A stretch of DNA of 56,314 bases. Origin: Betaproteobacteria bacterium. Its GTDB lineage: Bacteria > Pseudomonadota > Gammaproteobacteria > Burkholderiales > JAYUZG01. The stretch covers positions 1 through 56,314 of the forward strand of contig JAYUZG010000010.1 of NCBI GenBank assembly GCA_043751985.1. Direction: 5' to 3'. Made by a program: the position numbers and the translations under genes. Positions 15,241-54,215 of the stretch are shown one piece after another. The notes beneath the pieces were generated by a model. The model had not been told where the DNA came from. It did not search any database and was given only the letters and a program-made list of their open reading frames with translations. Position 1 is the stretch's first letter. Every line of letters begins with the position of its first letter.

Positions 15241-15249
15241 GCGCAGCCG

Positions 15250-17841: not shown

Positions 17842-17846
17842 AACCC

Positions 17847-40370: not shown

Positions 40371-41558
40371 ATGCGAATTCGCGAGTTGAGTAAGTTGTGG
40401 TCTCTGATCTGCGGTTTTGCCGCGATGTTGTTGATCGTCAATGAGGCGCAAGCAGATTCAAACGTAAAAATCGGCTGGCTCACCTCTCTTACCGGCGCGC
40501 TTTCCTCCGCTGCGATCGCGGAGAACCAGGGCGTTCAGTTGGCAGTCGAGGAAATCAACGTGAGCGGCGGCATCCTGGGCCGCAAGATCGAACTGGTCAC
40601 ACGCGACACCGCAGGCGATCCAACCAAAGCCGTCAACTTCGCGCAACAGGTGATTTTCAGCGAGAAGGTCGATGCGATCATCGGTCCGGTTAATTCCGGC
40701 GAAGGTCTGGCGGCCATTCCGATGATTGCACGCAGCGGCATCTTGAATATCGTAATCGGGGCGCTGGACGATCTGGTCAGCCCGGAGAAATTCCCGCGCG
40801 CGTTTCGCGTAATCAATACCAATACACAGTGGATCAACACCGCCAATAACTACGCAGTGAAGACGCTGAAAAAAACCAAAATTGCCTTGATCGGGGACAC
40901 TACCGGTTACGGAACCGCCAGCGCAAAGTCCGCTACGGAGATGCTGGAAAAGCTCGGCGTGAAACCGGTGTACAGCGTTCTGCTCGACCCAAACAAGATC
41001 GATCTTGCGGATGAAATAGCCAAGGCAAAAGCGGCAGGCGCCGACGTTCTCATGCCATGGTCTGCGGCTACGGGTTTGTTAGGTCGCCTGCTCAACGCGC
41101 GTGGCGACATGGGTTGGAAGGTGACGGTGGTCGGCCATCCCGCTCTGATGGCACCGCAAATACGCAAGCTGCTGAATAAACCCGAGTACTGGAATGACAC
41201 CTTTGCGGCCGGCTATTCAAGTACCACCTTCAATGCGGATGGCAAACTGCCACCGAGGACTCAAGCCTTGCTCGACAAGATCCGCCCGAAGCTCGGTGGC
41301 GGCGAAGTCGATGTCATGTTCTGGTGGGTGGCACTTGGCTACGACACAGTGAAGATTATTGAGCACGCGGCCAAGACGGCCGGTTCGTTTGACCAGGCGG
41401 CGATGCAAACAGCGCTCGAAAATACGCGCGAGTACCCAGGCGTCTATGGCACCTACTCCTGGTCCGCCCAACAACGCAATGGCTTTCCCGACATCGGCAT
41501 GACAATGAACGTGGCCAATACCTTCAAGGTCGGCGCGTTCAAAATCGCTCCGCGTTAA
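40371..41558 (+). CDS. ABC transporter periplasmic substrate-binding protein (Leu/Ile/Val-binding-like, Peripla_BP_6)
   Basis: Signal peptide 'LICGFAAMLLIVNEAQA', then 'KIGWLTSLTGALS', 'IIGPVNSG'. ATG at 40371 has GGGGAG upstream. Confidence 0.85.
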   Translation: MRIRELSKLWSLICGFAAMLLIVNEAQADSNVKIGWLTSLTGALSSAAIAENQGVQLAVEEINVSGGILGRKIELVTRDTAGDPTKAVNFAQQVIFSEKVDAIIGPVNSGEGLAAIPMIARSGILNIVIGALDDLVSPEKFPRAFRVINTNTQWINTANNYAVKTLKKTKIALIGDTTGYGTASAKSATEMLEKLGVKPVYSVLLDPNKIDLADEIAKAKAAGADVLMPWSAATGLLGRLLNARGDMGWKVTVVGHPALMAPQIRKLLNKPEYWNDTFAAGYSSTTFNADGKLPPRTQALLDKIRPKLGGGEVDVMFWWVALGYDTVKIIEHAAKTAGSFDQAAMQTALENTREYPGVYGTYSWSAQQRNGFPDIGMTMNVANTFKVGAFKIAPR

Positions 41559-41574
41559 CCGGCCGGCGGTCGAC

Positions 41575-42435
41575 GTGCTCACAGTCCTTATTTCCGGCCT
41601 GGCCGTGGGCGCCCTATTCGCATCGACTGCCCTCGTCTACAACGTCATGTACTCGACGTCTAAGGTGTTGTCGGTCACCACCGGACATATCGCCATGCTG
41701 GGTGGAATCACCGGGGCATGGGCCATCGCCGGCTTGCAAGTTCCCGTCTGGATAGGTCTCGCCTCAGCGATTGCCATAGGTGGCTTGTTCGGTTACCTGA
41801 CTGACGTCATCGCGATACGGCGAGTGGTGACGCGAAGCGATGAGCACCTGTGGTTGTTGAGTACGCTCGCGCTGGCAACCATTGTGCAGCAAGCCGTAGG
41901 TTTGTGGTGGGGAACCGAACCCAAACCTTTTCCGAGACTTTTCGCGCAAGATTTTTCCAGCGGAATTGCCGACCAGAAATTCTGGTTGCCGATGCTGGTG
42001 GCCGCGCTGATGGCTACGGGTTTGGAATTGTTCTATCGCAGAACAATGTTTGGCAAACTGTTTGTCGCTCTCTCGGAAGACGCGTTCGCTGCCCGCGCAC
42101 GCGGCGTGCACACCGATTGTATCCGCGCGGCGTCCTACGCGTTGGCGGGCGCGCTGGGCGGACTCGCGGGCTTTGCCGCCGGTCAGCTTACCTTTGCGTA
42201 TTTCGCGCTCGGACTTACCTTGACATTGAACGGCTTCATCGCGCTCGCGGTCGGAGGACTCGGCAGCAATCTTGGCGCGTTGATCGGCGGCGTTGCGCTG
42301 GGGCTGCTTAATTCCCTGTCCAGCTACTTCTTTGGCGGTGAGTATCAGCAGACTATTGCGGTAGGCCTGCTGATCCTTGTGTTGCTGTTGCGGCCCGAAG
42401 GCTTGTTCGGGTCGAGCAAAGTGCGGCCGGTATAA
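41575..42435 (+). CDS. Branched-chain-amino-acid-type ABC permease (LivH-like)
   Basis: Polytopic membrane protein. 'AFAARARGVHTD', 'GALGGLAG' and 'GGLGSNLGALIGG' are typical of the LivH family. Confidence 0.85.
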   Translation: MLTVLISGLAVGALFASTALVYNVMYSTSKVLSVTTGHIAMLGGITGAWAIAGLQVPVWIGLASAIAIGGLFGYLTDVIAIRRVVTRSDEHLWLLSTLALATIVQQAVGLWWGTEPKPFPRLFAQDFSSGIADQKFWLPMLVAALMATGLELFYRRTMFGKLFVALSEDAFAARARGVHTDCIRAASYALAGALGGLAGFAAGQLTFAYFALGLTLTLNGFIALAVGGLGSNLGALIGGVALGLLNSLSSYFFGGEYQQTIAVGLLILVLLLRPEGLFGSSKVRPV

Positions 42436-42437
42436 AC

Positions 42438-43442
42438 GTGACGGTAACCAAGCAAACGCTGGGCGCCCTCGCCTGCCTGATGGCATTCGCTGCGCTGCCG
42501 ATGTGGGCAAGCGACCAATACATGCTGCATCTCGGCACTTTGATTTGCGCTTACTGGATACTCATCGCCGGGCTCAATCTGGTGGTGGGATTCGGCGGGC
42601 AATTATCCATTGGTCATGTTGGACTGCTCGCAATCGGCGCATACGGGTTCGCTATCGTCGCAGGAAAATTTGGTGTTCATCCGTTTGCCGCGCTGCTTTT
42701 CTCCGGCGCGCTCGGCGCAGCGTGCGGCTTGCTTCTCGGGCTACCATCGCTACGCCTCCCCAGATTTTATTTCGCCATGGCCACCCTCGCGTTCTCGCTC
42801 ATTGTCGGCGAGTTGATCCTTGCACAGGGCAGTCTCACCGGCGGTGGCGTAGGGTTGCCGGTGCCGGCCTTCCCCGCGCCGTTCGATTCACCGCGCGGGT
42901 TTTATTGGCTGGTGCTGGTCATCGCGGCCGTGTGCACCTGGATGTTACGAAACATTGCGCACCGCATGTGGGGGCGCGCGTTGATCTCGATTCGCGACAA
43001 CCCGGTTGCAGCCGCCGCGGCCGGCGTGCCGGTGTTTCGCGCCAAACTGATCGCCTTTATTTTCAGTGGATTCACAGCGGGAATTGCCGGTGCCTTGTTT
43101 GGCTCGTTGCAAAGCTATATCACGCCCGATACGTTTCAGTTTGAATTGGGATTGTTTTTTTTCGTGTGCATCATCATCGGCGGACGCGGCAGCGTGTTCG
43201 GACCTCTCGCCGGGACCATCGTGCTCACGGCCTTGCCGGAACTTGCTTCCCCACTCGCCCGGCTCGGAACATTTTTCTATGGGCTGATGCTGTTGTTCGT
43301 CGTGCTGGTGGTGCCCGAGGGGATCGGCCGCGTGTTCGAAATTATGGTTGCACGCTGGCGGCCGCAAAAACGCGCCAGCACGCTGATCAATCCGGATCTA
43401 CCCAGCCTGACCCGCGCCATTGAGGCGAACGGCCGCCGATGA
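42438..43442 (+). CDS. Branched-chain-amino-acid-type ABC permease (LivM-like)
   Basis: 'GFGGQLSIGHVGLLAIGAY', 'IRDNPVAAAAAGV' and 'IIGGRGSVFGPLAG' are present. Confidence 0.85.
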   Translation: MTVTKQTLGALACLMAFAALPMWASDQYMLHLGTLICAYWILIAGLNLVVGFGGQLSIGHVGLLAIGAYGFAIVAGKFGVHPFAALLFSGALGAACGLLLGLPSLRLPRFYFAMATLAFSLIVGELILAQGSLTGGGVGLPVPAFPAPFDSPRGFYWLVLVIAAVCTWMLRNIAHRMWGRALISIRDNPVAAAAAGVPVFRAKLIAFIFSGFTAGIAGALFGSLQSYITPDTFQFELGLFFFVCIIIGGRGSVFGPLAGTIVLTALPELASPLARLGTFFYGLMLLFVVLVVPEGIGRVFEIMVARWRPQKRASTLINPDLPSLTRAIEANGRR

Positions 43443-44224
43443 GTAGACTCGCGCCTGCCGTCGCTGTTGATTACGAGCTAACCGCAGTCGCGGTCAGCAA
43501 ATCGTTTGACGGAATCCAGGCGTTAACTGATGTTTCCTTGAGTCTGCGTCCTGGCGAAGTGCACGGTCTTATCGGGCCAAACGGCAGTGGCAAGACCACG
43601 CTGTTAAATTTGCTGTCGGGTTATTACCGCCCAAGCGGCGGCGCGATTCTCTATCGCAATGAGAGTCTGGAGACTGCCACGGTTCAGCGCCGCGCCGACA
43701 TCGGCATCGCGCGTACCTTCCAGAAGCCACGTTTGCTCGGCTCGTTGTCGGTCCTCGACAACGCCATGCTCGGCGCATGGGGCGACACAGAATCGGGCTT
43801 TCTCGCTACGGCCCTGGCACTGCCTTCGGCGCGTCGCGAGGAGCACAAGATGCGCGAGCGCGCCAGTGAATTGCTGCACGCAATCGGGTTGGGGCGGGTG
43901 ATTGATCATCAAGCCAAGCTGCTCGAACACGCGGAGAAACGCTTTCTTGAAATCGCACGCGGCCTCGCCGCGCGACCGACTTTCATGCTGCTGGACGAAC
44001 CTGCCGGCGGTCTGACCGAAAACGAGATTGAGTTGCTCGGCAAAGTTATTACCACGCTAAAGAATTCCGGCATCGGCGTCTTACTGGTCGAGCATCACAC
44101 CGATTTCGTGTTTCGCATCAGTGACCGAGTGACTACACTGGATCTTGGCAAGATGATCAAGTACGGCACGCCGGAGGAAGTTCGGCGCGATGCGGAAGTG
44201 ATTCGCGTGTATCTCGGCGCATGA
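43439..44224 (+). CDS. ABC transporter ATP-binding protein (LivG-like)
   Basis: Walker A 'GPNGSGKTT', Walker B 'LLDEPAGGL' and C-terminal 'VIRVYLG'. ATGA overlap with the upstream gene. Confidence 0.9.
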   Translation: MSRLAPAVAVDYELTAVAVSKSFDGIQALTDVSLSLRPGEVHGLIGPNGSGKTTLLNLLSGYYRPSGGAILYRNESLETATVQRRADIGIARTFQKPRLLGSLSVLDNAMLGAWGDTESGFLATALALPSARREEHKMRERASELLHAIGLGRVIDHQAKLLEHAEKRFLEIARGLAARPTFMLLDEPAGGLTENEIELLGKVITTLKNSGIGVLLVEHHTDFVFRISDRVTTLDLGKMIKYGTPEEVRRDAEVIRVYLGA

Positions 44225-45006
44225 CCACGGAATCGGCAGAAAGCATCGTGGCGACGCGTCCTGACACGACTCTGCTCGCTGTGCGCGGATTAAACGTTGC
44301 CTACGGTACCGCGGCGGTGGTGCATGATGTTTCATTCGACGTACGGGCAGGAGAGTTTGTGGTGCTGCTCGGCCGCAATGGCGCGGGCAAGAGCAGCATC
44401 CTGCACGCGCTGTCCGGGTTGATCCCTAAGGTTTCCGGTGAAGTCTTTTTCGACGGCGTCGATTTCACGCACGCGAGCGCGCGCGCGATCGTGCGCGCCG
44501 GCGTGGTGCAAGTCCTCGAAGGGCATCGGGTGTTCGGCGCGCTCACGGTAGAAGACAACTTATTGATCGGGACCTATGCGCGCCATCCGCGCGGAGACCG
44601 TTCAGCATTGGTGCGCATATACGATTTCTTTCCCGAGTTGGCCGGGCGCCGAAATGAAATGGCGTCACGTCTGTCCGGCGGCCAGCAGCAGATTCTCGCC
44701 GTGGCGCAAGGCGTGATCGCGAGACCACGATTGCTGATTCTGGACGAACCCTCCGGCGGCCTCGCCCCATTAGTGATCGACCGCATTCTCGCGGTCGCGA
44801 CGGATCTGTGTCGCTCCGGCCTGGCGATTTTGCTGGTCGAGCAACTGGTCGAGAAAGCGCTGCGCTGCGCGCACTGGTGCTATCTGATTGAAACCGGCCG
44901 TGTGGTGGCGTCCGCGTCGTCGGCCGACATCCGCCATTCCGAGTTGCTGCATCGCGCGTATTTGGGCGGCGGCGTCCACGAACCATCTTCGAGAACCATG
45001 GCATGA
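44221..45006 (+). CDS. ABC transporter ATP-binding protein (LivF-like)
   Basis: Walker A 'GRNGAGKSS', signature 'LSGGQQQ' and Walker B 'LILDEPSGGL'. ATGA overlap with the upstream gene. Confidence 0.9.
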   Translation: MTTESAESIVATRPDTTLLAVRGLNVAYGTAAVVHDVSFDVRAGEFVVLLGRNGAGKSSILHALSGLIPKVSGEVFFDGVDFTHASARAIVRAGVVQVLEGHRVFGALTVEDNLLIGTYARHPRGDRSALVRIYDFFPELAGRRNEMASRLSGGQQQILAVAQGVIARPRLLILDEPSGGLAPLVIDRILAVATDLCRSGLAILLVEQLVEKALRCAHWCYLIETGRVVASASSADIRHSELLHRAYLGGGVHEPSSRTMA

Positions 45007-47117
45007 ATGAAAAATTGCGCGACGGCCTGCGTGCGGCTCTCTATCCTCGCTCGATTGCTTTGATCGGCGCCTCCGACAATCCGAACAAAATCGGCGGCCG
45101 CCCGCTCGCATTCTTGTCACGCTTTGGCTTTCGCGGATCGGTGTATCCGATCAATCCGACGCGTAACGAAGTGCAAGGTATGAAGACTTATTCCGGGCTG
45201 AGCGCGCTGCCCGAAGTTCCGGACATGGCAATCGTCGCGGTGGCCGGCGACATGGCCATGACCGCAGTTGAAGCGTGCGCTGTTGCGGGTGTAAAGGTCG
45301 CGCTCGTCATGGCGTCCGGCTTCGGCGAAACCGACGCAGCCGGTAAAGCCAAAGAGCAGCGCATGAAAGCTGTTGCCGCTGAGCACGGCATGCGCATCGT
45401 CGGTCCGAATTCACAAGGTCTGGCGAACTTTGGCAATGGCGCTGTCGCGAGCTTCTCGACCATGTTTGTCGAAACTCCGCCTGCGGTCGGTCCGGTTGGA
45501 ATCGTCAGCCAGAGCGGCGGCATGAGCGTCGTGCCGTATCACCTGCTGCGCGCGCGTGGCATCGGCGTGCGCCATGTTCACGCGACCGGCAATGATGCAG
45601 ACATTACCGTTTGCGAATTGGCGACACTGGTGGCGGAAGACCCTGAAGTACGCTTGCTCCTTCTATATCTCGAAGGCATTCCCGATCCGTGGAATTTGGC
45701 CGAAGTCGCACGCATCGCGCGCGAACGCAAGGTGCCGGTCATCGTGCTGAAGTCAGGCCGCACGGCGGCCGGCCGGGAGGCGGCACGGTCGCACACCGGC
45801 GCGCTCGCGAGCGAAGATCGCGTGGTTGACGCGTTTCTGGAACAACATGGAATCTGGCGCGCACAAACGGTCAACGAATTGGTCGATGCCGCTGATCTGT
45901 ATTTGAAAGGATGGAAACCACAAGGCCGCAATCTCGTCGCGGTAAGCAATTCCGGCGCAGTGTGTGTATTGAGCGCGGATGCCGCGACCGCCGCGGGCCT
46001 GCCCATGGCAAAGCTGAGCGATACCACGCGCGCGGAGCTCACGCGCATCCTGCCTGGATTCGCCACCACGACCAATCCAATTGATATCACCGCCGCGCTG
46101 CTCAGCAACAGCGGGCTGTTCAGCGAGATTCTGCCGGTGCTCGCGAAGGACTCCTCGGCCGATGCGTTTCTGATCGGCATTCCGGTTGCGGGCGCTGGCT
46201 ATGACGTCGAGCGTTTCGCCGTTGACTCAGCCGCGTTTGCCAAACAAACCGGCAAGCCGATCGTCGTCTCCGCGCCGCAACCCGTGGTGGCAGATCGTTT
46301 TCGCGCGCAGGGCCTGACCGTTTTTGCGACTGAGAGCGATGCGCTGCGCGCGCTGGCGCAATATCTTGGACACATGGAATTGATGGATCGTGTCGTCAAG
46401 CATCCACCGTCCGCGATTGATCGCGCGGCGGCGAGCGGCGAGTCGACCATGCTCAACGAAAGCGAAAGCCTGAAGCTGCTCGCACAGACCGGCGTGCCGG
46501 TCGTCGCACATCAACTATGTCATACGGCAGCGGAGGCGCTCACGGCATTCGAAGCGCTGGGAAGTTCGGTGGCGATGAAAGGCTGCACCGCCGAAGTCGC
46601 GCACAAAACCGAGTTAGGTCTGGTCAAGCTCGGTATTCGCGATCGTGCATCGGCCCAGAAAGCGTATGACCAAGTTCTTCTCGCCGCGCAAGCGGCTGCA
46701 ATCAAACTTGACGGAGTGATCGTCGCCGCAATGGAAGAGGGTCAGCGTGAGCTGATGATCGGCGCACGCCGTGATGCCTTGTTTGGACCGGTCATCCTGG
46801 TCGGCGACGGAGGCAAATACGTCGAGGCCATGCCCGACGCGCAAGTATTACTTGCGCCGTTTCACGCCGGCGACGTGATGCGCGCGCTGTCACGCTTACG
46901 CATCGCGCCCCTGCTCGCCGGCGTGCGCGGCGAGCCGCCGCTCGATATGGAAGCATTTTGTGACTGCGTGGCCGCGGTGGGACGACTGATGCTGGACGCA
47001 AACTGCAGCGTCAGCAATTTGGATTTGAATCCGGTGATGCTGAGGTCGCGCGGTCAGGGCTGCACTGCCGTGGACGCGGTTATTTTCCAACATGCGGCGA
47101 TTGCCGTAGTTGAGTGA
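45003..47117 (+). CDS. ADP-forming acyl-CoA synthetase (acetate--CoA ligase family; CoA-binding, succinyl-CoA-synthetase-like and ATP-grasp domains)
   Basis: 'PRSIALIGASDNPNKIGGRP', 'YPINP', 'GPNSQG', 'GIVSQSGG' and 'RSHTGALAS', plus a C-terminal ATP-grasp region. ATGA overlap with the LivF-like gene. Confidence 0.85.
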   Translation: MNEKLRDGLRAALYPRSIALIGASDNPNKIGGRPLAFLSRFGFRGSVYPINPTRNEVQGMKTYSGLSALPEVPDMAIVAVAGDMAMTAVEACAVAGVKVALVMASGFGETDAAGKAKEQRMKAVAAEHGMRIVGPNSQGLANFGNGAVASFSTMFVETPPAVGPVGIVSQSGGMSVVPYHLLRARGIGVRHVHATGNDADITVCELATLVAEDPEVRLLLLYLEGIPDPWNLAEVARIARERKVPVIVLKSGRTAAGREAARSHTGALASEDRVVDAFLEQHGIWRAQTVNELVDAADLYLKGWKPQGRNLVAVSNSGAVCVLSADAATAAGLPMAKLSDTTRAELTRILPGFATTTNPIDITAALLSNSGLFSEILPVLAKDSSADAFLIGIPVAGAGYDVERFAVDSAAFAKQTGKPIVVSAPQPVVADRFRAQGLTVFATESDALRALAQYLGHMELMDRVVKHPPSAIDRAAASGESTMLNESESLKLLAQTGVPVVAHQLCHTAAEALTAFEALGSSVAMKGCTAEVAHKTELGLVKLGIRDRASAQKAYDQVLLAAQAAAIKLDGVIVAAMEEGQRELMIGARRDALFGPVILVGDGGKYVEAMPDAQVLLAPFHAGDVMRALSRLRIAPLLAGVRGEPPLDMEAFCDCVAAVGRLMLDANCSVSNLDLNPVMLRSRGQGCTAVDAVIFQHAAIAVVE

Positions 47118-47122: not shown

Positions 47123-47491
47123 TTACTCCTCACGCCGAAAGCGGATCAAATTCTTGTTTCCCAGTCTGAATACTTCGCTGTTTACGCGCTCGCCGATCTT
47201 CGCATCAATCGGACCGTGGCCCATCAATCGGCCGCCTTCCTCCAGATCGACCAGCACGATTCCATACGGCGTCAGCGCTTTGAACTCGTCAGACGGCGCG
47301 CGCGTGACCACGGTGGCGGCGAACACCGTGCCGCGCCCGCTCGATGTTTGCCAATCGAGCTGCGAGCTGCCACAGTGGGTGCAGGCATAACGCGCGAGCC
47401 GCTGTGCGCGGCCGCATTCACGGCAGCGTTGAAAGCGCAATTCGGATTGCTCCAATCCGCGCGTGAACTCTGACATCGAGGTCGCTGCCAT
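47123..47491 (-). CDS. DUF35 protein (Zn-ribbon plus OB-fold)
   Basis: Zn ribbon 'CRECGRAQRLARYACTHCGS' followed by OB-fold 'GTVFAATVV...YGIVLVDLEEGGRLMG'. Start 2 nt after the upstream stop, with GGGAG upstream. Confidence 0.8.
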   Translation of the reverse strand: MAATSMSEFTRGLEQSELRFQRCRECGRAQRLARYACTHCGSSQLDWQTSSGRGTVFAATVVTRAPSDEFKALTPYGIVLVDLEEGGRLMGHGPIDAKIGERVNSEVFRLGNKNLIRFRREE

Positions 47492-47493
47492 CC

Positions 47494-48642
47494 TTACTCC
47501 CTCGCTCTTTGTAGAATCAGGCTCACGTGTGCCGATAGCACGCCGCCGTCGGCGTGGATGAACGCGCAATGTCTGGGGGCGATCTGCCGCTCACCTGCTT
47601 GCCCCGTCATTTGGCGCCAGGCTTCGGCGATATGACTCATCCCGCCTGCCACACCCGAGTGGCCGAATGAGAGCAGTCCGCCGTGGGTATTGAGAGCTAA
47701 TTTTCCGTCGCGCGCAAACACACCTTGGCGCAATCGCTCGGCCGAGCCGCCGTAGGGCGCGAAACCGGTTTCTTCTAGCAAAATCGCCAAAGTGATGGTG
47801 AACGAATCGTAAATGCCCAAGTAGTCGATCGCCGAACGTTCGATACCCGCATCGGCGAAGGCGCGTGCAGCCGCGTCGCGTGCTCCGAAGTTACGTGTAT
47901 CCGAAACCGCCGACAAGTGCTGGTGCCGGTGCGCCTGACCGGCTCCCGCGACGCGTATCCCAGGGCTGGTGGTTGATGGCTCAGCCGACACCATCATCGC
48001 CACGGCACCATCGGACATCGGGCAGCAATCGAGTAGCTTCAACGGCGCCGCGATTGGCTTGGACTGCATCACTTCGTCGATGCTGACCGGCGTCTTGAAA
48101 TGCGCGTCCGGATGACGCGATGCGTTGTCGTGCATCAGCACCGCGAATTCCGCCAGGTCTCGCTCGGTGAGCCCACTCTCATGCATGTAGCGCGAGGCGA
48201 GCAAGGCGTAGTACGTAGGCACCATTACGCCATTAGGGATTTCGTACTCGGCATCTCCCACCTGGGCTAGGGTTTGAATCGCGTTGTCTCGCTGCTGTCC
48301 GCTGAGGCGATTTTCTCCCGCGACTACCAAAACATGCTTGCAACGTCCGCTCTTGATCAGCTCGGCGGCGAGCATGACCATACCGGCGCCGGTCGCGCCG
48401 CCCATCTGCACGCCGTGTGCATAACTCGGTTCGAGTGCGAAACGCTCGCAAAACAAAGTCGCCAGCATGAGATGCGGCATGGTCGTCGCATAGCCGCACA
48501 ACACACCATCGACGTCACGGCGTTGGATTCCTGCGCTCTCAATCGCGCGGTGCGCGGCGGCAGCCATCAGATCGAGCGCGCTCTGCCCTTCAAGGCGCCC
48601 GAACGGAGTAGAGCCGACTCCACTGATCCAAGCGGATTTCAT
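47494..48642 (-). CDS. Thiolase-superfamily protein, SCP-x/Ltp type; canonical catalytic cysteines not evident
   Basis: 'ISGVGSTPFGR', 'LKLLDCCPMSDGAVAMMV' and 'NTHGGLLSFGHSGVAGG' match SCP2-thiolase-like proteins. The nucleophile position reads 'MGGATGAG', and the HDCF-type motif reads 'YDSF'. Confidence 0.8.
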   Translation of the reverse strand: MKSAWISGVGSTPFGRLEGQSALDLMAAAAHRAIESAGIQRRDVDGVLCGYATTMPHLMLATLFCERFALEPSYAHGVQMGGATGAGMVMLAAELIKSGRCKHVLVVAGENRLSGQQRDNAIQTLAQVGDAEYEIPNGVMVPTYYALLASRYMHESGLTERDLAEFAVLMHDNASRHPDAHFKTPVSIDEVMQSKPIAAPLKLLDCCPMSDGAVAMMVSAEPSTTSPGIRVAGAGQAHRHQHLSAVSDTRNFGARDAAARAFADAGIERSAIDYLGIYDSFTITLAILLEETGFAPYGGSAERLRQGVFARDGKLALNTHGGLLSFGHSGVAGGMSHIAEAWRQMTGQAGERQIAPRHCAFIHADGGVLSAHVSLILQRARE

Positions 48643-48646
48643 TTGT

Positions 48647-49702
48647 TCAGACGGTTCCAACCGGCGTTGCCGGCGAACCCACCGCGCCCGGCAAACGCAG
48701 CGGCGGCGCAGTCAATAGAAAACGATAACGAGCATGCGCGCGCAGCCAATTGGCGAGCGGCGTCAGATGCCAGATCTCACCCAGGTTGACGCCGATCTTG
48801 AACAAACAATGTTCATGTAGCGGCAGCAACGCGCAACGCCCATGTCCCTCGCGCGCGGGATACGCTTCCACCGCGTAGTTATCCGCGATCAGTGACACCA
48901 GCTTGCTGTCGGTGACCCATTGCAACAATTTGTCATCACGGCCGTCCAACCCGGTACAGGAATTTTCCAGCGCATGCGCGTCCGGCTGCTTGTTCATTTC
49001 CAAAATCATTTCGGCGAAACCGGTATGCAAACACACCATGTCGCCGGCCTCGATTTCTACTTTGTCCTTTTCCAGGACGCGCATCAGATCGTCGTAACCA
49101 ATCGCCTTGGGTTCGCGTCCGAAGTGGGCGTGCAGATCGATCATGGCCGCCCTGCCCTGCATGCATTTTTCCGCCATGTTCTCGATGCCGAGCCGCTGCG
49201 CATCGGAAGTCGAACGCGGCTCGATCGGGCCGCTCGCACCTGCGTTTCCCGCTTCACTCGGTCCGTGAATATGCACCCCGGCGCGGAAGCCGTTGTAGAA
49301 CACCGCTTCGGCCACGCCATCGCCATCCGCGTCAAACATCTGCCCGACATGCGCGAGGCTGTCCCACTGTGTCGAATACTGAAGGTGAATCAACGCAAGG
49401 TCGTCATTCATCACGTCGGTCTTGTCCGGAAGGTCTTGCTCCACGCGGTAATTGAAATTCGGTTTCCCCGCACGCAGCGTCGGTCGCAGCACCGGCGGAA
49501 AGCGTCGCGGATTGAGCACATTGCCGCCGGGATAGTCGAGCGGAAGACTGAGACAGAAGGTCAGCCCTTCTCGCACTTCCGCCACGCCCTGACGCACTTT
49601 CTCCGGTGTCAGCAAATTGACACGGCCCAATTCGTCATCAGGTCCATAGTCGCCCCAAGTCGATCCTTTGGGTCGGTGTTTCCAACGTGACGAAGATGAC
49701 AT
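48647..49702 (-). CDS. Cyclase-family protein (PF04199-like, long form)
   Basis: 'GRVNLLTPEKV', 'IHLQYSTQWDSLAHVG' (variant of the HxGTHxDxPxH motif), 'VCLHTG' and 'SLIADNYAVE' are present. Confidence 0.65.
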   Translation of the reverse strand: MSSSSRWKHRPKGSTWGDYGPDDELGRVNLLTPEKVRQGVAEVREGLTFCLSLPLDYPGGNVLNPRRFPPVLRPTLRAGKPNFNYRVEQDLPDKTDVMNDDLALIHLQYSTQWDSLAHVGQMFDADGDGVAEAVFYNGFRAGVHIHGPSEAGNAGASGPIEPRSTSDAQRLGIENMAEKCMQGRAAMIDLHAHFGREPKAIGYDDLMRVLEKDKVEIEAGDMVCLHTGFAEMILEMNKQPDAHALENSCTGLDGRDDKLLQWVTDSKLVSLIADNYAVEAYPAREGHGRCALLPLHEHCLFKIGVNLGEIWHLTPLANWLRAHARYRFLLTAPPLRLPGAVGSPATPVGTV

Positions 49703-49739
49703 GATTTTCTCCTCTCTCTAATCTTAGTCTGTCAAAGTG

Positions 49740-50729
49740 CTAACGAATGAAATCCAGCACGCGTTGCGATTCTGTTGCCAGTAACTCGGCGCCAATTCTA
49801 TGGTTCCAGTACGCCTCCGAACCCGCGCACAATCGCCACTCGTGCAAGCGCCGCGTGAATAACTGCAAGTCGAACTCCTCAGTCACTCCGATCGCGCCGT
49901 GAACTGCGTGCCCCATCGCGCAGATAGAAGCGGCCACCTCGCTGGTCACCGCTTTTGCGATCGACGCTTTGCGCGTGTCCGGCAGAAAACCATTCGCATC
50001 ACTACCGATGCGCGCCGCGCTGTGCGCGAGTGCGGTCTGCTCCGCCATCACCGCAATCTGATGTTGAATCGCCTGAAACTTTCCGATGGCGCGGCCAAAC
50101 TGAGAGCGTTCATTGGCGTAAGTCAAGGTCATGCGCAACACGCTGGCCATAGCGCCGGACATTTGCGCGGCGAGCAGACAGGCTTGCACGACGCGCAACT
50201 CGCTCAGGCACGCAATAGTCTCTTGCTTCGCCGATCCAAGAGACCAAGTCAATAACGCACTCGACGCAAAGGATGCAACGGGATCGCGACGTGCCTCTGC
50301 CAACGGAAGCAAGATGGCTTTATTTCTCACACCCACCAACGCCCAGTGCGCGGTCATCGCTTGCGCAGTCTGTCCGCAACGAATGGATCCGTCCGAAGGA
50401 TCAATCTTGCCGTGCGCCAAAACTATCGCTTCATGCGGAATGCTTTCACCCGCGGCGTGCAAGATCGCCCTCGCGAGCATCGTTTGCGCGAACGGCAGCG
50501 GCAACGCGTATATGCCGCTGAGTTCAATGAGCGGAAACACGTCGCGCAACGCCAACCCTGCCCCGCCGGCATGTACCGGTAACAGCGCGTCGAGAAAACC
50601 CGATTCCTCCAGTTGGCGCCACACAACATTGGTCGCGCCGCCCTGATCGATGGTGCGCACTTGGGCCGGTGCGCTGCACGCGCGCAATAAGCGCTCGAAA
50701 GGATCGACCAGAGAATTCTCCACGCTCAT
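49740..50729 (-). CDS. Acyl-CoA dehydrogenase-like protein, short form (candidate beta subunit)
   Basis: The C-terminal ACAD helical domain is clear ('YANERSQFGRAIGKFQAIQHQIA', 'HGAIGVTEEFDL'). The N-terminal and middle domains are short and divergent. The start overlaps the upstream ACAD stop (TGATG). Confidence 0.75.
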   Translation of the reverse strand: MSVENSLVDPFERLLRACSAPAQVRTIDQGGATNVVWRQLEESGFLDALLPVHAGGAGLALRDVFPLIELSGIYALPLPFAQTMLARAILHAAGESIPHEAIVLAHGKIDPSDGSIRCGQTAQAMTAHWALVGVRNKAILLPLAEARRDPVASFASSALLTWSLGSAKQETIACLSELRVVQACLLAAQMSGAMASVLRMTLTYANERSQFGRAIGKFQAIQHQIAVMAEQTALAHSAARIGSDANGFLPDTRKASIAKAVTSEVAASICAMGHAVHGAIGVTEEFDLQLFTRRLHEWRLCAGSEAYWNHRIGAELLATESQRVLDFIR

Positions 50730-51883
50730 CAGCGCAACCCCAAGCCACGCGCGATCATCCCGCGCAAAATTTCGCGTGTTCCGCCACGCAACGAAAATGT
50801 CGGTGCGATCTGCGACACATAGGACAGCGCGCGCGACAACTCCGCGCTCGTGTCGCCATCGGGATCGGCGCCGAGCGAGCCGGCGATCATCACCGGGATC
50901 GCTTGTTCCAGTTCGGTACCGAGTTCCTTCACCAGCGCGGCTTCGACCACCGGACTTTCACCGCACGCAATTCTTGCGGTGAGAGAAATCGACATTTCGC
51001 GTAACACGGCGAGGCGCGACACGATCTTTCCGGCCAACTCCTGCGCGCGCGGCTGGGCGGCCGGTCGTCGACGCAGCAGTTCGATCCACTCGTCGAGCAA
51101 CACGGCGTCCGAGTACAGTCGTTCCGGCCCGCTGCGCTCATACGCGAGTTCCGTGGTGACTTGGCTCCAGCCATCGCCTTCCTTGCCGATCAGTGGGTCG
51201 GAAGTAAGTTGCACGTCCTGGAAAAAAACTTCATTGAAGTGACGATCACCGGTAAGGTCTTGAATCGGCCGCACGGTTACGCCAGGGAGCGAGAGATCGA
51301 CGATGAACTGAGACAAGCCCGCATGTCGATCCTCACTTGTGCCGGACGTGCGAACCAAAGCAATCATGTAGTGTGAGCACTGTGCATTGGTGGTCCAGAT
51401 TTTCTGTCCGTTCAGCCGCCATCCATCCGTAGTCTTCTCCGCTCGCGTGCGGACGCTGGCGAGATCGGAACCGGAATTGGGTTCGCTCATGCCGATGCAA
51501 AAGAAAGCCTCGGCCCGGCAGATCAAAGGCAAGTAAAACTGCCGCTGTCGCTCCGTGCCGTATTTCAGAATCAGCGGCGCGCTCTGACGATCGGCGATCC
51601 AGTGCGCACCGACCGGCGCGCCCGCGTTGAGAAACTCTTCGACCATCACAAAGCGGGCGAACGCGCTGCGGCCGGCGCCGCCATACTGCTGCGGCAGCGT
51701 CAGACCGATCCAGCCGTTCTTTGCGAGTGCCCGGCTAAACTCCGGGTCGGAGCGCGACCACGAGCGCGCAAGTTGATCCACCGCAACGCCGCGCAGTGCG
51801 TCCGCGAGAAACGTACGCACCGCTTGGCGCAACGCTTCGTCTTCGGGCGGGATGATTGCGGCTTCAAATGAATCGAGAATCAT
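50729..51883 (-). CDS. Acyl-CoA dehydrogenase (candidate alpha subunit)
   Basis: 'CIGMSEPNSGSDLASVRT', 'WRLNGQKIWTTNA' and 'YERSGPERLY', with C-terminal 'RGGTREILRGMIARGLGL'. Start set at the internal ATG (MILDSFEA). Confidence 0.88.
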   Translation of the reverse strand: MILDSFEAAIIPPEDEALRQAVRTFLADALRGVAVDQLARSWSRSDPEFSRALAKNGWIGLTLPQQYGGAGRSAFARFVMVEEFLNAGAPVGAHWIADRQSAPLILKYGTERQRQFYLPLICRAEAFFCIGMSEPNSGSDLASVRTRAEKTTDGWRLNGQKIWTTNAQCSHYMIALVRTSGTSEDRHAGLSQFIVDLSLPGVTVRPIQDLTGDRHFNEVFFQDVQLTSDPLIGKEGDGWSQVTTELAYERSGPERLYSDAVLLDEWIELLRRRPAAQPRAQELAGKIVSRLAVLREMSISLTARIACGESPVVEAALVKELGTELEQAIPVMIAGSLGADPDGDTSAELSRALSYVSQIAPTFSLRGGTREILRGMIARGLGLR

Positions 51884-52007: not shown

Positions 52008-52922
52008 TTGTTTGCTCCACCCCAAGTTATCGAAACTCGTGTGTTTGCTCGACTGCCGGAAGAACTTAAGCTAAAGACGGAGACCAACGAATGGGCCGAT
52101 GGCCAGCCGATCGGCATTCCCGGACGCTCGCTGATCGAAGGCCCGTCATTTGATCGCGAAGGCAATCTCTACTGCGTGGACATTCCCGCCGGGCGAATAT
52201 TCAAAGTCACGCGCAACGGCGTGTTCCATTTGCTGGTGGAATACGACGGCTGGCCCAACGGCCTGAAAATACATCGTGACGGGCGCATTTTTATCGCCGA
52301 CTACAAGAACGGCATCATGTTATTCGACCCAGACACACGCAGCGTCAAGCCCTACCTGGTGCGCGCCAATCTGGAGCGATTCAAGGCGGTGAACGATTTG
52401 TTCTTCGCCGCGAACGGCGATCTGTATTTCACTGATCAAGGGCTCACTGGATTGCACGATCCGACCGGGCGCGTGTTTCGTGTGCGTCCGAACGGCCAGG
52501 TAAGTTGTCTGCTGGATAACGTGCCCAGCCCCAACGGCCTGGTGATGAACCGGGACGAGTCCATGCTGTATGTCGCGGTCACGCGCGGCAACTGCATCTG
52601 GCGCGTCCCGTTTACGCGCAGCGGAGAAGCCGTAAAAGTCGGCCTCTACCTTCAGCTATCGGGCGGCGGAGGGCCGGATGGTCTCGCGCTGGACGATGCG
52701 GGCAGGCTCGCCGTCGCGCACGTCGCGATGGGTTCGGTGTGGATCTTCGACGCGACTGGACAGCCGGTGTATCGCATCCAGTCGTGCATGGGCACGCACA
52801 CGACCAATGTTGCTTTCGGCTGGCCCGATCGAAATCAGCTCTACATTACCGAGTCGGAGAGCGCCACCATTCTCGTCGCCGACCTCGATGTGCCGGGGAA
52901 GCTCATGTATTCCCACGCATGA
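52008..52922 (+). CDS. SMP-30/gluconolactonase/LRE-family beta-propeller hydrolase
   Basis: 'EGPSFDREGNLYCVDI', 'PNGLKIHRDGRIFIADY', 'FTDQG', 'PNGLVMNRDESMLYVA' and 'PDGLALDDAGRL' are present. A TTG start at 52008 lies 6 nt after AAGGAG; the long upstream ORF extension was rejected. Confidence 0.8.
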   Translation: MFAPPQVIETRVFARLPEELKLKTETNEWADGQPIGIPGRSLIEGPSFDREGNLYCVDIPAGRIFKVTRNGVFHLLVEYDGWPNGLKIHRDGRIFIADYKNGIMLFDPDTRSVKPYLVRANLERFKAVNDLFFAANGDLYFTDQGLTGLHDPTGRVFRVRPNGQVSCLLDNVPSPNGLVMNRDESMLYVAVTRGNCIWRVPFTRSGEAVKVGLYLQLSGGGGPDGLALDDAGRLAVAHVAMGSVWIFDATGQPVYRIQSCMGTHTTNVAFGWPDRNQLYITESESATILVADLDVPGKLMYSHA

Positions 52923-53059: not shown

Positions 53060-53159
53060 CGGGAATCTGATTCACACTGAATGACAGGCATCTTCTTTGC
53101 GATTACCTGCTCGAACGGATGGTGTCGTACCGCCGGACCCCGAGCAGAGTCAAAGGAGC

Positions 53160-53825: not shown

Positions 53826-54215
53826 GAATTTCGGGTTGAGTTTTTCACTGCCGGTTTCTGGCGGGTTCAATCACCTTCATAGAGCCAAAGCCCTGGCGCG
53901 CTGTTTTTTCCGACACGCGATCAAGTTCACCCACCGGCGCGTGTGGTCTAGTGCGAATTGCCACCAAGCTCTGCTCGCGTAATTAAGCTGCTAACCCGGC
54001 GAACCCGTTGCGCAGGTCGCGCGATTGGTCCCCGGCAATAACATCCGGCGGCCTTCGCCGCTTGGAGCGGCCGCAACCATGCCGGTCTCTGTTGCTTGTG
54101 CCAGCGCAACCGCCCATCGCACGGCTGCGATCCCGATTGGCAAAGTTTTGTTCCGGCCATCGCCTATACTTCCGCCCTGCGTACCTACAGTTCAAATTCT
54201 CGAAGAGGAAATCAA

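Follow-up and report, generated by a model that had tools for sequence, protein, structure and literature searches.

A five-gene operon combining an acyl-CoA dehydrogenase pair, a cyclase-family protein, a Cys-less thiolase-fold protein and a DUF35 protein in a betaproteobacterium

Introduction

Which pathway is encoded by an operon that carries a cyclase-family protein where a hydratase would be expected? The operon occupies positions 47123-51883 on the minus strand of a 56,314-nt stretch of betaproteobacterial DNA (the window). An earlier note had read it as a module resembling actinobacterial steroid side-chain cleavage, with the cyclase-family protein in the hydratase position. In our analysis, the steroid-like relatives of the acyl-CoA dehydrogenase (ACAD), aldolase and DUF35 components hold up, but the cyclase as a hydratase substitute is not supported. 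The pathway of the five-gene set is uncharacterised, though the 'cyclase' falls in a known hydrolase subfamily.

Results and discussion

Organization of the operon and its neighborhood

Checking of the open reading frames and junctions confirmed the five genes, which are also present in the public gene calls of the source contig; the gene set is real (Table 1). The large ACAD gene (ACAD_L) overlaps the small one (ACAD_S) by 1 nt at a TGATG junction, followed by gaps of 37 nt to the cyclase gene, 4 nt to the thiolase-like gene and 2 nt to the DUF35 gene, exactly the packing described before. Pfam profile searches bear out the assigned identities: a full-length ACAD, a short ACAD-like protein, a cyclase-family protein, a thiolase-superfamily protein and a DUF35 protein.

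Table 1. Genes of the operon and its flanks, with positions in the window.
Feature	Length (aa)	Position	Strand	Assignment
LIV/HAAT-type ABC importer, five genes		40371..45006	+	Pfam
ABC binding protein		40371-41558	+	Peripla_BP_6
ABC permeases, two genes		41575-42435, 42438-43442	+	BPD_transp_2
ABC ATPases, two genes		43439-44224, 44221-45006	+	ABC_tran
ADP-forming acyl-CoA synthetase, fused alpha and beta domains	704	45003..47117	+	Pfam, PDB
Stand-alone DUF35 protein	122	47123..47491	-	Four-Cys zinc ribbon and OB fold
Thiolase-fold protein without nucleophilic Cys	382	47494..48642	-	Motifs GGATG, YDSF, FGHSG
Cyclase-family (PF04199) protein	351	48647..49702	-	MGS0169/trans-dienelactone-hydrolase subfamily
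ACAD small (beta-type) subunit, ACAD_S	329	49740..50729	-	Start codon overlaps ACAD_L stop by 1 nt
ACAD large (alpha-type) subunit, ACAD_L	384	50729..51883	-	Pfam and PDB matches
SMP-30/gluconolactonase/LRE-family beta-propeller	304	52008..52922	+	Pfam SGL, 138.5 bits

The conserved neighborhood also takes in convergent genes for an ABC transporter and an ADP-forming CoA ligase (40371-47117) and a divergent SMP-30-type lactonase gene, all left out of the earlier note. Only 5 nt separate the stop codons of the ligase and the operon. The ligase matches Pfam CoA_binding_2, Succ_CoA_lig and ATP-grasp_5, and among PDB entries it is closest to 8wzu, an ADP-forming 4-hydroxybutyrate-CoA ligase (E 3e-97). 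Its SHTGALA and HK.E.G histidine motifs are conserved, and both catalytic histidines are kept. Of 80 genome loci, 28 have a ligase gene within 10 kb of the cyclase gene; for the thiolase-like gene, the count is 21 of 23. In the Burkholderiales loci L010, L019, L021, L027 and L167-L172, orthologues of the ABC genes (65-76 % identity) stand ahead of the genes for the cyclase, the thiolase-like protein, DUF35 and the ligase.

The SMP-30 gene is separated from the operon by 124 nt. In Methylobacterium aquaticum, an SMP-30 gene (27 % identity, E 2e-23) and an AtuA pair stand beside thiolase-like, DUF35 and ligase genes, and locus L169 has an NHL propeller after its AtuA pair. The propeller may belong to the system as a second lactonase of the locus.

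The ACAD pair

ACAD_L matches the N-terminal and middle ACAD domains of Pfam and barely the C-terminal one, which is the only domain that scores in ACAD_S. Its best PDB matches are Tcur3483 (6wy9, E 5e-41) and ChsE4 (4x28_A); that of ACAD_S is Tcur3481 (6wy8_A, E 9e-17), and ChsE5 (4x28_D) also matches. The best solved relatives of both subunits are therefore the alpha and beta chains of the same complexes, in line with the heteromeric steroid-type ACAD proposed earlier. ChsE4-ChsE5 (4X28) and the IpdE1-IpdE2-type Tcur3483/Tcur3481 (6WY8/6WY9) likewise combine a full-length with a degenerate subunit encoded by overlapping genes. The catalytic Glu of ACAD_L likely lies in the segment ELAYERSGPER, of which ELA.ERSGPER is kept in 62 relatives.

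In contrast to these heterotetrameric steroid ACADs, the matches here are distant and no NCBIfam model reaches its cut-off: pimC_large, the best for ACAD_L, stays far under it, and IpdE2, the best for ACAD_S, is also below. The true orthologues of the pair (ACAD_L 60-69 %, ACAD_S 43-49 % identity) sit in clusters with family-III CoA-transferases, Bug receptors and crotonase, and the cyclase is never beside them.

The cyclase-family protein

PF04199 scores 38 bits on the cyclase-family protein (cut-off 23.1). Over its full length, it matches MGS0169 (PDB 5IBZ; E 2e-36, 35.8 % identity over 302 aligned residues). The altered metal motif pointed out before is present, with Q108-x3-Q112-x-D114-x3-H118 in place of H-x3-H-x-D-x3-H, yet it is not enigmatic, as it defines a characterised esterase/lactonase subfamily. 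MGS0169 is a Mn2+-stimulated carboxylesterase for which the modified motif is the published signature, and the Zn-dependent trans-dienelactone hydrolase of P. reinekei carries it as well (PMC5341072). Residues R67, Q108, Q112, D114, H118, H296 and E309 align with R87, Q127, Q131, D133, H137, H286 and E299 of MGS0169. All seven have been shown or implicated as catalytic in MGS0169, and they are invariant among relatives of our protein; mutants of Q127, Q131, D133, R87, H286 and E299 lost activity (PMC5341072). The conserved active site, shared in its Gln motif and its Arg, His and Glu with MGS0169 and the P. reinekei MT1 enzyme, predicts a metal-dependent ester or lactone hydrolase.

On the other hand, the substrate-contact residues F84, F117 and F110 of MGS0169, an enzyme characterised on artificial esters only (PMC5341072), are replaced by L63, M98 and P92. 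The cyclase also carries an extra conserved stretch of about 36 residues with FDADGDG..E directly after the catalytic His, and its context of CoA-ester metabolism is not described for the subfamily. A Caballeronia homologue (59.5 % identical) takes the slot of the dienelactone hydrolase in an ortho-cleavage cluster for catechol, lying between genes for an intradiol dioxygenase, an MR/MLE cycloisomerase and maleylacetate reductase. A Variovorax homologue (67.6 %) heads a cluster of altronate dehydratase, FAH and aldehyde dehydrogenase, where a lactonase is expected. Relatives of 62-76 % identity are scattered over many gene neighborhoods that are unrelated to one another (TauD; CoA-transferase with TPP enzyme and hydantoinase; amino-acid ABC transporter), and therefore the physiological substrate class of the clade is uncertain.

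The thiolase-like protein and DUF35

The thiolase-like protein matches Pfam Thiolase_N and Thiolase_C_1. Alignment places Gly at the nucleophile (MGGATG, against AACASG in true thiolases) and finds no retained nucleophilic Cys, so the Cys-less thiolase fold noted before is verified. The motifs GGATG, YDSF and FGHSG are invariant in 23 linked orthologues and the 120 closest relatives. PDB matches are 4u4e, CtSal (9myr_A) and Ltp2 (6ok1_A), the bile-acid aldolase CtSal being the closest solved relative after the uncharacterised 4u4e.

The DUF35 protein matches zf-ChsH2 and OB_ChsH2_C, and its CxxC...CxxC pattern is kept in 24 relatives. Among PDB entries, the CtShy DUF35 domain (9myr_B), which binds CtSal, matches best, ahead of the archaeal DUF35 and that of ChsH2; the proposed pairing logic agrees with this match. 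A DUF35 gene follows the thiolase-like gene in essentially every locus examined. The one exception in the tblastn table, L182, has an annotated Zn-ribbon gene directly downstream. We predict from these features that the thiolase-like protein is a retro-aldolase and DUF35 its partner.

CtSal-CtShy of Comamonas testosteroni (9MYR), the characterised PDB entry to which both proteins match best, also has Gly for the nucleophilic Cys, the kept tyrosine of YD-x-[YF] and a DUF35 partner. Here, in contrast, DUF35 is a free protein instead of forming the C-terminal part of a MaoC hydratase, the position of Gln352 in Sal is taken by His328, and no steroid genes lie near the operon. With TcLtp2-ChsH2 and its companions ChsH1-ChsH2 and ChsE1-ChsE2 (6OK1), the locus shares the logic of a heteromeric ACAD plus a DUF35-bound, Cys-less thiolase-fold aldolase. 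It differs from this actinobacterial steroid C3 side-chain system in having no MaoC hydratase, an ADP-forming instead of a FadD-type ligase and a betaproteobacterial host.

Sal and Ltp2 are thus characterised precedents for the aldolase role, but the active site departs from both. Sal uses Tyr302 and Cys304, and its C304S variant is inactive (PMC12329534); therefore, a protein with YDSF has to rely on another acid, if it is an aldolase at all. Of the two Ltp2 residues Tyr294 and Tyr344, one is represented: Tyr278 is kept, but Tyr344 has no equivalent. The complex could instead catalyse other C-C or acyl-transfer chemistry, for example as a decarboxylase or a PhlABC-kind acyltransferase, or be a scaffold without catalytic function; the locus would then not be a side-chain-cleaving module. 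True thiolases and acylases are also served by DUF35 proteins, the nearest structure 4u4e is uncharacterised, and several relatives have neither hydratase nor ACAD nearby. Nevertheless, the YD-x-F tyrosine and the thiolase His are invariant, and Sal (162 bits) outscores every true thiolase (best 7yvy, 153 bits). More distant relatives are accompanied by pairs of small MaoC hydratases, ACADs and aldehyde dehydrogenase. We consider a non-aldolase role unlikely.

Does the cyclase replace a hydratase?

Neither ECH nor MaoC turned up among the sizeable ORFs of the window, and tblastn with ECH seeds gave none either, so the absence of a MaoC or crotonase hydratase reported for the cluster extends over all 56 kb. 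One might suppose that the cyclase-family protein hydrates the ACAD product, directly or via a lactone, and feeds the aldolase. A single crotonase cluster is present in 45 of 80 metagenome loci with ACAD-pair relatives and, in the longer listed loci, usually directly follows ACAD_S, the slot taken here by the cyclase. The unit of thiolase-like, DUF35 and ligase genes often occurs with an AtuA pair and with one of the cyclase and MaoC hydratases, but never with the two together. In a set of 37 non-redundant loci that carry the thiolase-like gene, MaoC occurs in 3/9 cyclase-less and 0/28 cyclase-containing ones (Fisher p ~0.01, uncorrected for phylogeny and for how loci were fetched). In locus L177, MaoC, ECH and SDR replace the cyclase within the canonical skeleton of IclR, thiolase-like, DUF35, ligase and AtuA genes.

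Against this substitution, every characterised relative is a hydrolase, and the esterase active site is conserved in full. Six of the nine cyclase-less loci also encode no hydratase, so a hydratase gene in cis is dispensable; in Stellaceae loci, the cyclase and a crotonase occur together. The closest thiolase-like/DUF35 relatives lack any cyclase, and the cyclase itself frequently occurs without ACAD or thiolase-like genes. The canonical Burkholderiales locus (ABC, cyclase, IclR, thiolase-like, DUF35 and ligase genes, the AtuA pair being divergent) lacks an ACAD; a hydratase would thus find no enoyl-CoA substrate there, unless the acid is unsaturated when it is taken up. The cyclase is probably not a stand-in hydratase, and we assign little probability to the substitution.

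Distribution of the gene set

We found the five-gene order in the species of the window and in one further lineage, whose cyclase is 84 % identical, and no wider; conservation of the set in other genomes, on which the earlier note was to be judged, is partial. The widespread unit is the thiolase-like protein, DUF35 and the ADP-forming CoA ligase, linked in alpha- and betaproteobacteria. We regard the operon as a fusion of three separately widespread units: the ACAD pair, the cyclase, and thiolase-like/DUF35 with the ligase.

Since each unit stands alone in many genomes and the full order is so restricted, the juxtaposition could be incidental, the units serving different pathways and merely sharing a transcription unit in this lineage. 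This seems improbable, as the spacing is translationally coupled, the order is kept in the second lineage with ACAD_S down to 55 % identity, and carboxylates or CoA esters are the substrates of all partners. Cyclase, thiolase-like, DUF35 and ligase genes are also found linked in at least five cyclase subclades and two proteobacterial classes.

A proposed pathway

We give about even chances to the locus being a mosaic catabolic island for a carboxylic acid that contains a lactone or ester or originates from one. From the observed family membership, active-site residue conservation, gene linkage and distribution, we infer a step order, a substrate class, complex formation and catalytic roles. 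The LIV-type ABC system would import the carboxylate. The cyclase, as a Mn2+/Zn2+-dependent hydrolase, would open a lactone or ester bond, and the divergent SMP-30 propeller may do likewise. The ADP-forming ligase would then make the CoA thioester, although lactone opening before and after ligation are indistinguishable from the present data. An alpha2beta2 ACAD would introduce a 2,3-double bond, whose hydration would probably fall to a hydratase with its gene in another part of the genome; the lack of this required enzyme within 56 kb counts against the pathway. Finally, the thiolase-like/DUF35 complex would split the 3-hydroxyacyl-CoA by a retro-aldol reaction into acetyl-CoA (or propionyl-CoA) and an aldehyde or ketone, with Tyr278 as base and His328 probably in place of the Cys or Tyr acid of Sal or Ltp2.

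The beta-ketoadipate and modified ortho-cleavage pathways hydrolyse a lactone, activate the acid with CoA and cleave it with a thiolase-fold enzyme. By inference from this established pathway knowledge, the proposed route would employ the same three enzyme types in sequence. The thiolase-fold enzyme here is incapable of thiolysis because the nucleophilic Cys is absent, and an ADP-forming ligase takes the place of the CoA-transferase.

Gene organization of the operon and its surroundings

Five genes on the minus strand encode the large (alpha-type) and small (beta-type) acyl-CoA dehydrogenase subunits (ACAD_L and ACAD_S), a PF04199 cyclase-family protein, a thiolase-like protein and a DUF35 protein. 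The layout given in the earlier note was re-derived from the open reading frames, and the gene calls are identical to independent calls on the public source contig, a metagenomic one of 135.9 kb. A Pfam profile-HMM search confirmed the family assignments of all five proteins, and no protein of the locus reached a curated NCBIfam cut-off. Promoter and terminator scans gave no signal above shuffled expectation.

Two units that the earlier note had omitted adjoin the operon directly: a LIV-type ABC importer together with a 704-aa ADP-forming acyl-CoA synthetase (ligase), convergent on the operon with the stop codons of ligase and operon only 5 nt apart, and a divergent SMP-30/gluconolactonase-family gene. 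Comparison with other loci places at least the transporter and the ligase in the same system. The remaining window contains housekeeping genes (flagellar genes, glnD, uvrB, rne, plsX-fabHDG-acpP-fabF and mltG-tmk-holB-pilZ-tatD). UvrB shares about 80% identity with proteins from MAGs of Burkholderiales and Sulfuricellaceae, which makes the host an uncultured betaproteobacterium. Pfam scans of essentially all sizeable open reading frames in the 56 kb found neither crotonase nor MaoC, and tblastn of the window with crotonase, AtuA, CoA-transferase and IclR seeds gave no match, in agreement with the earlier view that no hydratase gene lies near the operon.

Downstream of the SMP-30 gene, a 219–242-aa reading frame matching nothing in Pfam or NCBIfam precedes a sulfite-oxidase-like molybdoenzyme (Oxidored_molyb and Mo-co_dimer) with a c-type cytochrome, a SorAB-like pair. 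Elsewhere, fliC, fliD and fliS adjoin genes for a TPR/GT41 glycosyltransferase, WbqC and a DegT aminotransferase, and a second region holds two PhyH-family dioxygenases, TylF-like and other methyltransferases and a hexapeptide transferase. The two regions look like a flagellin- or sugar-modification island.

Coordinates of features in the window and in comparison loci (L numbers, genome or metagenome loci fetched for comparison)
Feature	Position	Strand	Remarks
Five-gene operon	47123-51883	minus	
ACAD_L gene	50729-51883	minus	ORF call and Pfam
ACAD_S gene	49740-50729	minus	ATG shares one base with ACAD_L TGA (TGATG)
Cyclase-family gene	48647-49702	minus	37-nt gap after ACAD_S
Thiolase-like gene	47494-48642	minus	4-nt gap after cyclase gene
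DUF35 gene	47123-47491	minus	2-nt gap after thiolase-like gene
Cyclase FDADGDG..E stretch	49307-49336		cyclase residues 123-132
Thiolase-like residue 329	about 47656-47658		follows the thiolase His
ABC importer and ligase	40371-47117		convergent on operon
SMP-30/gluconolactonase-family gene	52008-52922	plus	Pfam; divergent from operon
Unmatched ORF and molybdoenzyme	53097-55986	plus	
Flagellin and glycosyltransferase region	37-5671		
Dioxygenase and methyltransferase region	14239-19247		
SMP-30 propeller, Methylobacterium aquaticum	L180 5010-5957		
NHL propeller, Burkholderiales MAG	L169 1461-2423		
APH, ACAD and SDR genes, Comamonas endophytica	L179 14451-17436		
APH gene only	L173 3662-4654		upstream
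Small ORF	L167 12694-12897		between DUF35 and ligase
Small ORF	L171 12567-12704		between DUF35 and ligase
Small ORF	L170 12668-12862		between DUF35 and ligase
Conserved 155-195-aa protein	L094 3005-3517		14 further loci

The active site of the cyclase-family protein

The cyclase-family protein scores 38 bits against PF04199 (cut-off 23.1), and 5IBZ is its sole relative of known structure, matched over the full length with 35.8% identity (E 2e-36). This structure is MGS0169, a metagenomic carboxylesterase that is stimulated by Mn2+ and prefers acetyl esters (PMC5341072). Classical cyclase-like amidohydrolases, such as kynurenine formamidase KynB and isatin hydrolase, bind Zn2 or Mn through the motif H-x-G-T-H-x-D-x-P-x-H. 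In contrast, the window protein has Gln for both leading His residues and Leu for Pro, and reads LQYSTQWDSLAH.

The earlier note drew attention to this altered metal motif. MGS0169 carries Gln127-x3-Gln131-x-Asp133-x3-His137 in place of the classical His-x3-His-x-Asp-x3-His, and its activity is lost in alanine mutants of Q127, Q131, D133, R87, H286 and E299 (PMC5341072). The metal-dependent trans-dienelactone hydrolase of Pseudomonas reinekei MT1 has the same motif (PMC5341072; PMC4108320). Residues Q108, Q112, D114 and H118 of the window protein align with MGS0169 Q127, Q131, D133 and H137, and R67, H296 and E309 align with Arg87, His286 and Glu299; all seven are invariant among relatives in alignments of 22 and 82 sequences. 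Since these residues are present and invariant, the motif is a known signature of the esterase/lactonase branch of PF04199, already accounted for in the literature, and the earlier reading was an over-interpretation. By its sequence, the protein is assigned to the MGS0169/trans-dienelactone-hydrolase branch and is a predicted metal-dependent ester or lactone hydrolase, with which the genomic context agrees.

In Caballeronia sp. SBC2, a homologue (59.5% identity) lies between genes for an intradiol dioxygenase, an MR/MLE-type cycloisomerase and a maleylacetate reductase, in what by gene order is the dienelactone-hydrolase slot. The Variovorax paradoxus homologue (67.6%) heads a cluster of altronate-dehydratase-family, FAH-family and aldehyde-dehydrogenase genes, a place in which one would expect a lactonase. 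Searches of Pfam, NCBIfam and the PDB matched the window protein to PF04199 and 5IBZ alone, with no crotonase or hot-dog fold match, which places it outside the hydratase families as judged by homology; this bears on membership and not on whether the enzyme may catalyze hydration.

The cyclase clade is tight yet abundant, with more than 8000 90% clusters at E ≤ 1e-10 and 289 50% clusters at E ≤ 1e-30. Right after the catalytic His118, its members carry some 36 residues that have no counterpart in MGS0169. Within this segment, the conserved FDADGDG..E stretch (F123, D124, G127, G129 and E132 invariant) resembles a DxDxDG calcium- or metal-binding loop. An AlphaFold2 model built from the 22-sequence alignment was unusable (mean pLDDT 45.8), because all homologues available were at least 70% identical.

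A Cys-less thiolase-like protein and its predicted DUF35 partner

True thiolases (SCP2 or archaeal type, BbsB) possess a nucleophilic Cys and an acid/base Cys (HDCF or CxG), whereas the window protein lacks both. MGGATG stands where true thiolases have AACASG, so that the nucleophilic Cys is Gly, and YDSF is found at the position of HDCF in SCP2 thiolases, YDCY in Sal and YDHF in Ltp2. The thiolase His is kept as FGHSG. The protein is Cys-less and keeps no functional catalytic Cys. Ranked by score, its solved relatives are the uncharacterized 4u4e at 181 bits, in which these motifs recur, CtSal at 162 bits, an archaeal-type thiolase at 153 bits, Ltp2 at 122 bits and BbsB at 121 bits. Among solved structures, the DUF35 protein is matched best by the DUF35 domain of CtShy, which binds CtSal.

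Two catalytic pairs are described for these steroid aldolases: Tyr302 and Cys304 in CtSal, whose C304S variant is dead, and Tyr294 and Tyr344 in Ltp2 (PMC12329534). Compared with CtSal, the window protein keeps the Tyr (Tyr278) but has Ser at the Cys304 position and His328 at the Gln352 position; compared with Ltp2, it has no equivalent of Tyr344. No substitution occurs in GGATG, YDSF or the His among 23 cyclase-linked orthologues and the 120 closest database relatives. Judged by these residues, the protein adds a third type of active site to the Cys-less branch, and we infer that it acts as an aldolase with a Tyr/His pair. At residue 329, 75% of the cyclase-linked orthologues have Cys (GHCG), whereas the window and most of the closest relatives have Ser (GHSG). 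To our knowledge, steroid side chains are the only substrates for which Cys-less thiolase-fold aldolases with DUF35 partners have been characterized to date.

The ACAD pair, the ligase and the likeness to steroid modules

ACAD_L matches Tcur3483 and ChsE4, and ACAD_S matches Tcur3481 and ChsE5 (6wy8/6wy9, 4x28), which are the alpha and beta chains of alpha2beta2 steroid ACADs, respectively. The conserved ACAD_L segment ELA.ERSGPER gives a Glu at the IVD/ChsE-type base position. Together with the overlapping genes, these matches uphold the heteromeric type noted before, and a heteromeric enzyme of one full-length and one degenerate subunit is a well-supported prediction. The ligase contains CoA-binding, CoA-ligase and ATP-grasp domains (Pfam) and conserves both phospho-His motifs, SHTGALA and HK.E.G. 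Its best solved relative, matched over the full length, is an ADP-forming 4-hydroxybutyrate-CoA ligase (8wzu). The best NCBIfam match reaches 371 bits against a cut-off of 1300, from which substrate specificity is not assignable.

The resemblance to the steroid side-chain modules (ChsE/ChsH/Ltp2 or Scd/Shy/Sal) that the earlier note had drawn is thus partial. The window shares the predicted heteromeric ACAD and the Cys-less thiolase-fold putative aldolase, the motif of which is invariant among relatives. In contrast, steroid modules have a MaoC-type hydratase fused to DUF35, whereas the 56 kb contain no MaoC or ECH and the DUF35 protein is free (122 aa). The catalytic Tyr+Tyr (Ltp2, YDHF and Tyr344) or Tyr+Cys (Sal, YDCY) pair is not found with YDSF, and in place of a steroid catabolic cluster the surroundings are housekeeping genes, the ABC transporter, the ligase and the lactonase-like gene.

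Conservation of the gene set

We compared 80 species-level genome loci with a cyclase orthologue at 62–76% identity, counting a gene as linked when it lay within 10 kb of the cyclase; 41 of these loci have at least 5 kb on both sides. Genes were called by codon-usage log-odds, as longest-ORF calling picked antisense reading frames in GC-rich genomes; the codon-usage caller misses short genes such as DUF35, and therefore the linkage counts rest on tblastn. The ligase was linked in 28/80 loci (20/41 in the subset), the thiolase-like gene with DUF35 in 23/80 (16/41), the thiolase-like gene with the ligase in 21/80 (16/41), and neither ligase nor thiolase-like gene in 50/80 (21/41). The ACAD pair was linked in none (0/80, 0/41). 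In a neighbour-joining ordering of 88 sequences, thiolase-linked cyclases form no single group but are scattered over at least five, with differently linked ones between them. Cyclase orthologues of Hyphomicrobiaceae sit with CoA-transferase III, hydantoinase A/B-family genes and a TPP enzyme of the oxalyl-CoA decarboxylase/2-hydroxyacyl-CoA lyase type, with no thiolase-like gene (L033, L052, L058, L067, L078, L079, L023, L024).

The canonical Burkholderiales locus (L167-L172, L010, L019, L021, L027) starts with a divergent AtuA and AtuA-ferredoxin-like gene, followed by a binding protein, two permeases, two ATPases, cyclase, IclR, thiolase-like protein, DUF35, a small ORF and the ligase. The small ORF (45–67 aa, no Pfam match) has no equivalent in the window. 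Relative to this arrangement, the cyclase/thiolase-like/DUF35 block of the window is inverted, IclR and the AtuA pair are missing, and the ACAD pair is an addition. Among the loci examined, the five-gene order occurs in the window's own contigs and one lineage only (cyclase 84%, thiolase-like 84%, ACAD_L 77%, ACAD_S 55% identity). Within this sample, the gene set described in the earlier note is therefore kept in one further lineage only, and the operon of exactly these five genes is a mosaic particular to its lineage.

Relatives of the ACAD pair (ACAD_L 60–69%, ACAD_S 43–49% identity) were found in 80 metagenome loci, none of which holds the cyclase or a close thiolase-like gene. A typical locus reads LysR, CoA-transferase III, Bug receptors, CoA-transferase III, ACAD_L, ACAD_S and crotonase, and one crotonase cluster is present in 45/80, usually immediately 3' of ACAD_S. 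In 15 loci, these clusters also carry a conserved 155–195-aa protein with no Pfam match between CoA-transferase and Bug receptors.

On the thiolase side, the closest relatives (64–75% identity) occur without the cyclase. Diaphorobacter nitroreducens has IclR, thiolase-like protein, DUF35, Bug receptor and ligase; Comamonas endophytica adds to this set an AtuA pair and an adjacent APH-kinase/SDR/ACAD trio; and in two contigs an AMP-forming ligase adjoins leucine-catabolic genes. Locus L177 reads IclR, thiolase-like, DUF35, Bug, MaoC, Bug, crotonase, SDR, ligase, AtuA and AtuA-ferredoxin-like. Methylobacterium aquaticum (thiolase-like 58%), likewise without a cyclase, has thiolase-like protein, DUF35, ligase, AtuA pair and SMP-30 lactonase. 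More distant relatives (48–51%) show the classical logic: crotonase, thiolase-like, DUF35, two MaoC genes, ligase and ACADs in Roseovarius indicus, and ligase, MaoC pair, thiolase-like and DUF35 beside an aldehyde dehydrogenase on a Paracoccaceae plasmid. From these contexts, the core consists of the thiolase-like protein, DUF35 and a CoA ligase, to which exchangeable accessories are added: hydratases, the cyclase, AtuA pairs, ACADs or beta-propeller lactonases. Loci that include MaoC genes speak for an aldolase function of the thiolase-like protein.

Does the cyclase replace a hydratase?

In the earlier note, the cyclase-family protein sits where a hydratase is expected, from which comes the idea that it stands in for the missing enoyl-CoA hydratase. 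Among 37 non-redundant loci with a thiolase-like gene, the cyclase is present in 28, MaoC in three and both in none; cyclase and crotonase co-occur in three (Stellaceae). MaoC is found in 0/28 loci with and 3/9 without the cyclase (Fisher p ~0.01), but the 28 were fetched by cyclase query and the loci are phylogenetically clustered, so the mutual exclusion is a hint and not a test. The usual position of crotonase directly 3' of ACAD_S in relatives of the ACAD pair also favors a substitution. On the other hand, the esterase active site of the cyclase is fully conserved and every characterized relative is a hydrolase. Many cyclase contexts contain no ACAD or aldolase (TauD; amino-acid ABC transporter; CoA-transferase III with TPP enzyme and hydantoinase A/B; a PEP-mutase-family gene), and six of the 37 loci have neither cyclase nor hydratase and do without any cis-encoded hydratase. 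We consider the substitution unlikely.

An equally improbable form of this idea has the cyclase act on a CoA thioester right after the ACAD, either as a new metal-dependent enoyl-CoA hydratase or as an enol-lactone hydrolase. In the latter case, the ACAD would turn a beta-lactonised acyl-CoA into a dienelactone-like enol ester that the cyclase opens, and the two enzymes would jointly replace the hydratase (and dehydrogenase) steps. If the cyclase did act after the ACAD, there would be a MaoC-type and a cyclase-type version of thiolase-like/DUF35/ADP-ligase loci, each able to take the place of the other, and together they would constitute an undescribed, widespread C-C cleavage route for beta-substituted acids in soil and freshwater Proteobacteria.

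A proposed pathway

We favor hydrolysis of an ester or lactone by the cyclase. The substrate would be taken up via the ABC system, and the cyclase-family enzyme would open a lactone or ester, a step in which the SMP-30 propeller may share. The ADP-forming ligase would then make the CoA thioester, the alpha2beta2 ACAD would introduce the alpha,beta-double bond, a hydratase probably encoded elsewhere would hydrate it, and the thiolase-like/DUF35 complex would perform retro-aldol cleavage. We give the six-step scheme as a whole roughly even chances. Thiolase-fold aldolases serve steroid catabolism where the beta-carbon cannot be oxidized to a ketone. This use, together with AtuA (acyclic terpene utilization) and the Liu-type neighbours, suggests that the substrate may be a beta-substituted or hydroxylated acid.

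Three other links were considered. CoA-transferase and TPP-enzyme neighbours of cyclase relatives pointed to oxalate/formyl-CoA, and hydantoinase-family neighbours with the acetyl-ester preference of MGS0169 pointed to acetone/methyl acetate; these contexts are lineage-specific and lack the thiolase-like pair, and neither was adopted. Sarcosine-oxidase genes near two cyclase relatives are too thin as evidence for carnitine or betaine.

The searchable literature yields no description of the cyclase/thiolase/DUF35 or AtuA/DUF35 gene combination, in line with the earlier suggestion of an undescribed module, although all component families are known. What is new is a Cys-less thiolase-fold/DUF35 system of Proteobacteria outside steroid catabolism, in which the active site is a new variant, the DUF35 is free, the ligase is ADP-forming and an accessory enzyme is of the lactonase type. 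Its thiolase-like clade is large and uniform in sequence (GGATG, YDSF, GH[SC]G) and spans many non-steroid contexts in Alpha- and Betaproteobacteria; its members are linked with ADP-forming CoA ligases, AtuA pairs and lactonase-type hydrolases, and in some cases with MaoC hydratases. Very widespread and unannotated, the module is a good lead for function discovery and not a categorical surprise. Were the substrate identified, thousands of annotations that now read 'thiolase family', 'cyclase family', 'OB-fold' or 'AtuA family' would gain a function, and MGS0169-type esterases a first physiological role.

Recurrent accessory genes

The commonest accessory of the thiolase-like/DUF35/ADP-ligase module is AtuA (PF07287) paired with an AtuA-ferredoxin-like protein of about 115 aa (L012, L167-L172, L177, L179, L180); the window has the ACAD pair instead. 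A beta-propeller recurs beside AtuA, thiolase-like, DUF35 or ligase genes in the window, M. aquaticum and a Burkholderiales MAG. The M. aquaticum and window SMP-30 proteins share 27% identity (E 2e-23); the window SMP-30 and the MAG's NHL protein are barely similar, so the recurrence is stated at family level alone. It hints at lactone opening as a general first step.

An APH-family phosphotransferase with a monomeric-type ACAD lies beside the thiolase-like and DUF35 genes in two unrelated lineages, Hyphomicrobium (L043, L048, L073, L074, L082, L083) and C. endophytica, where an SDR gene is added; L173, from a third lineage, has the APH gene only. These pairs recall the ACAD10/11- or Lva-type catabolism of 4-hydroxyacyl-CoA.
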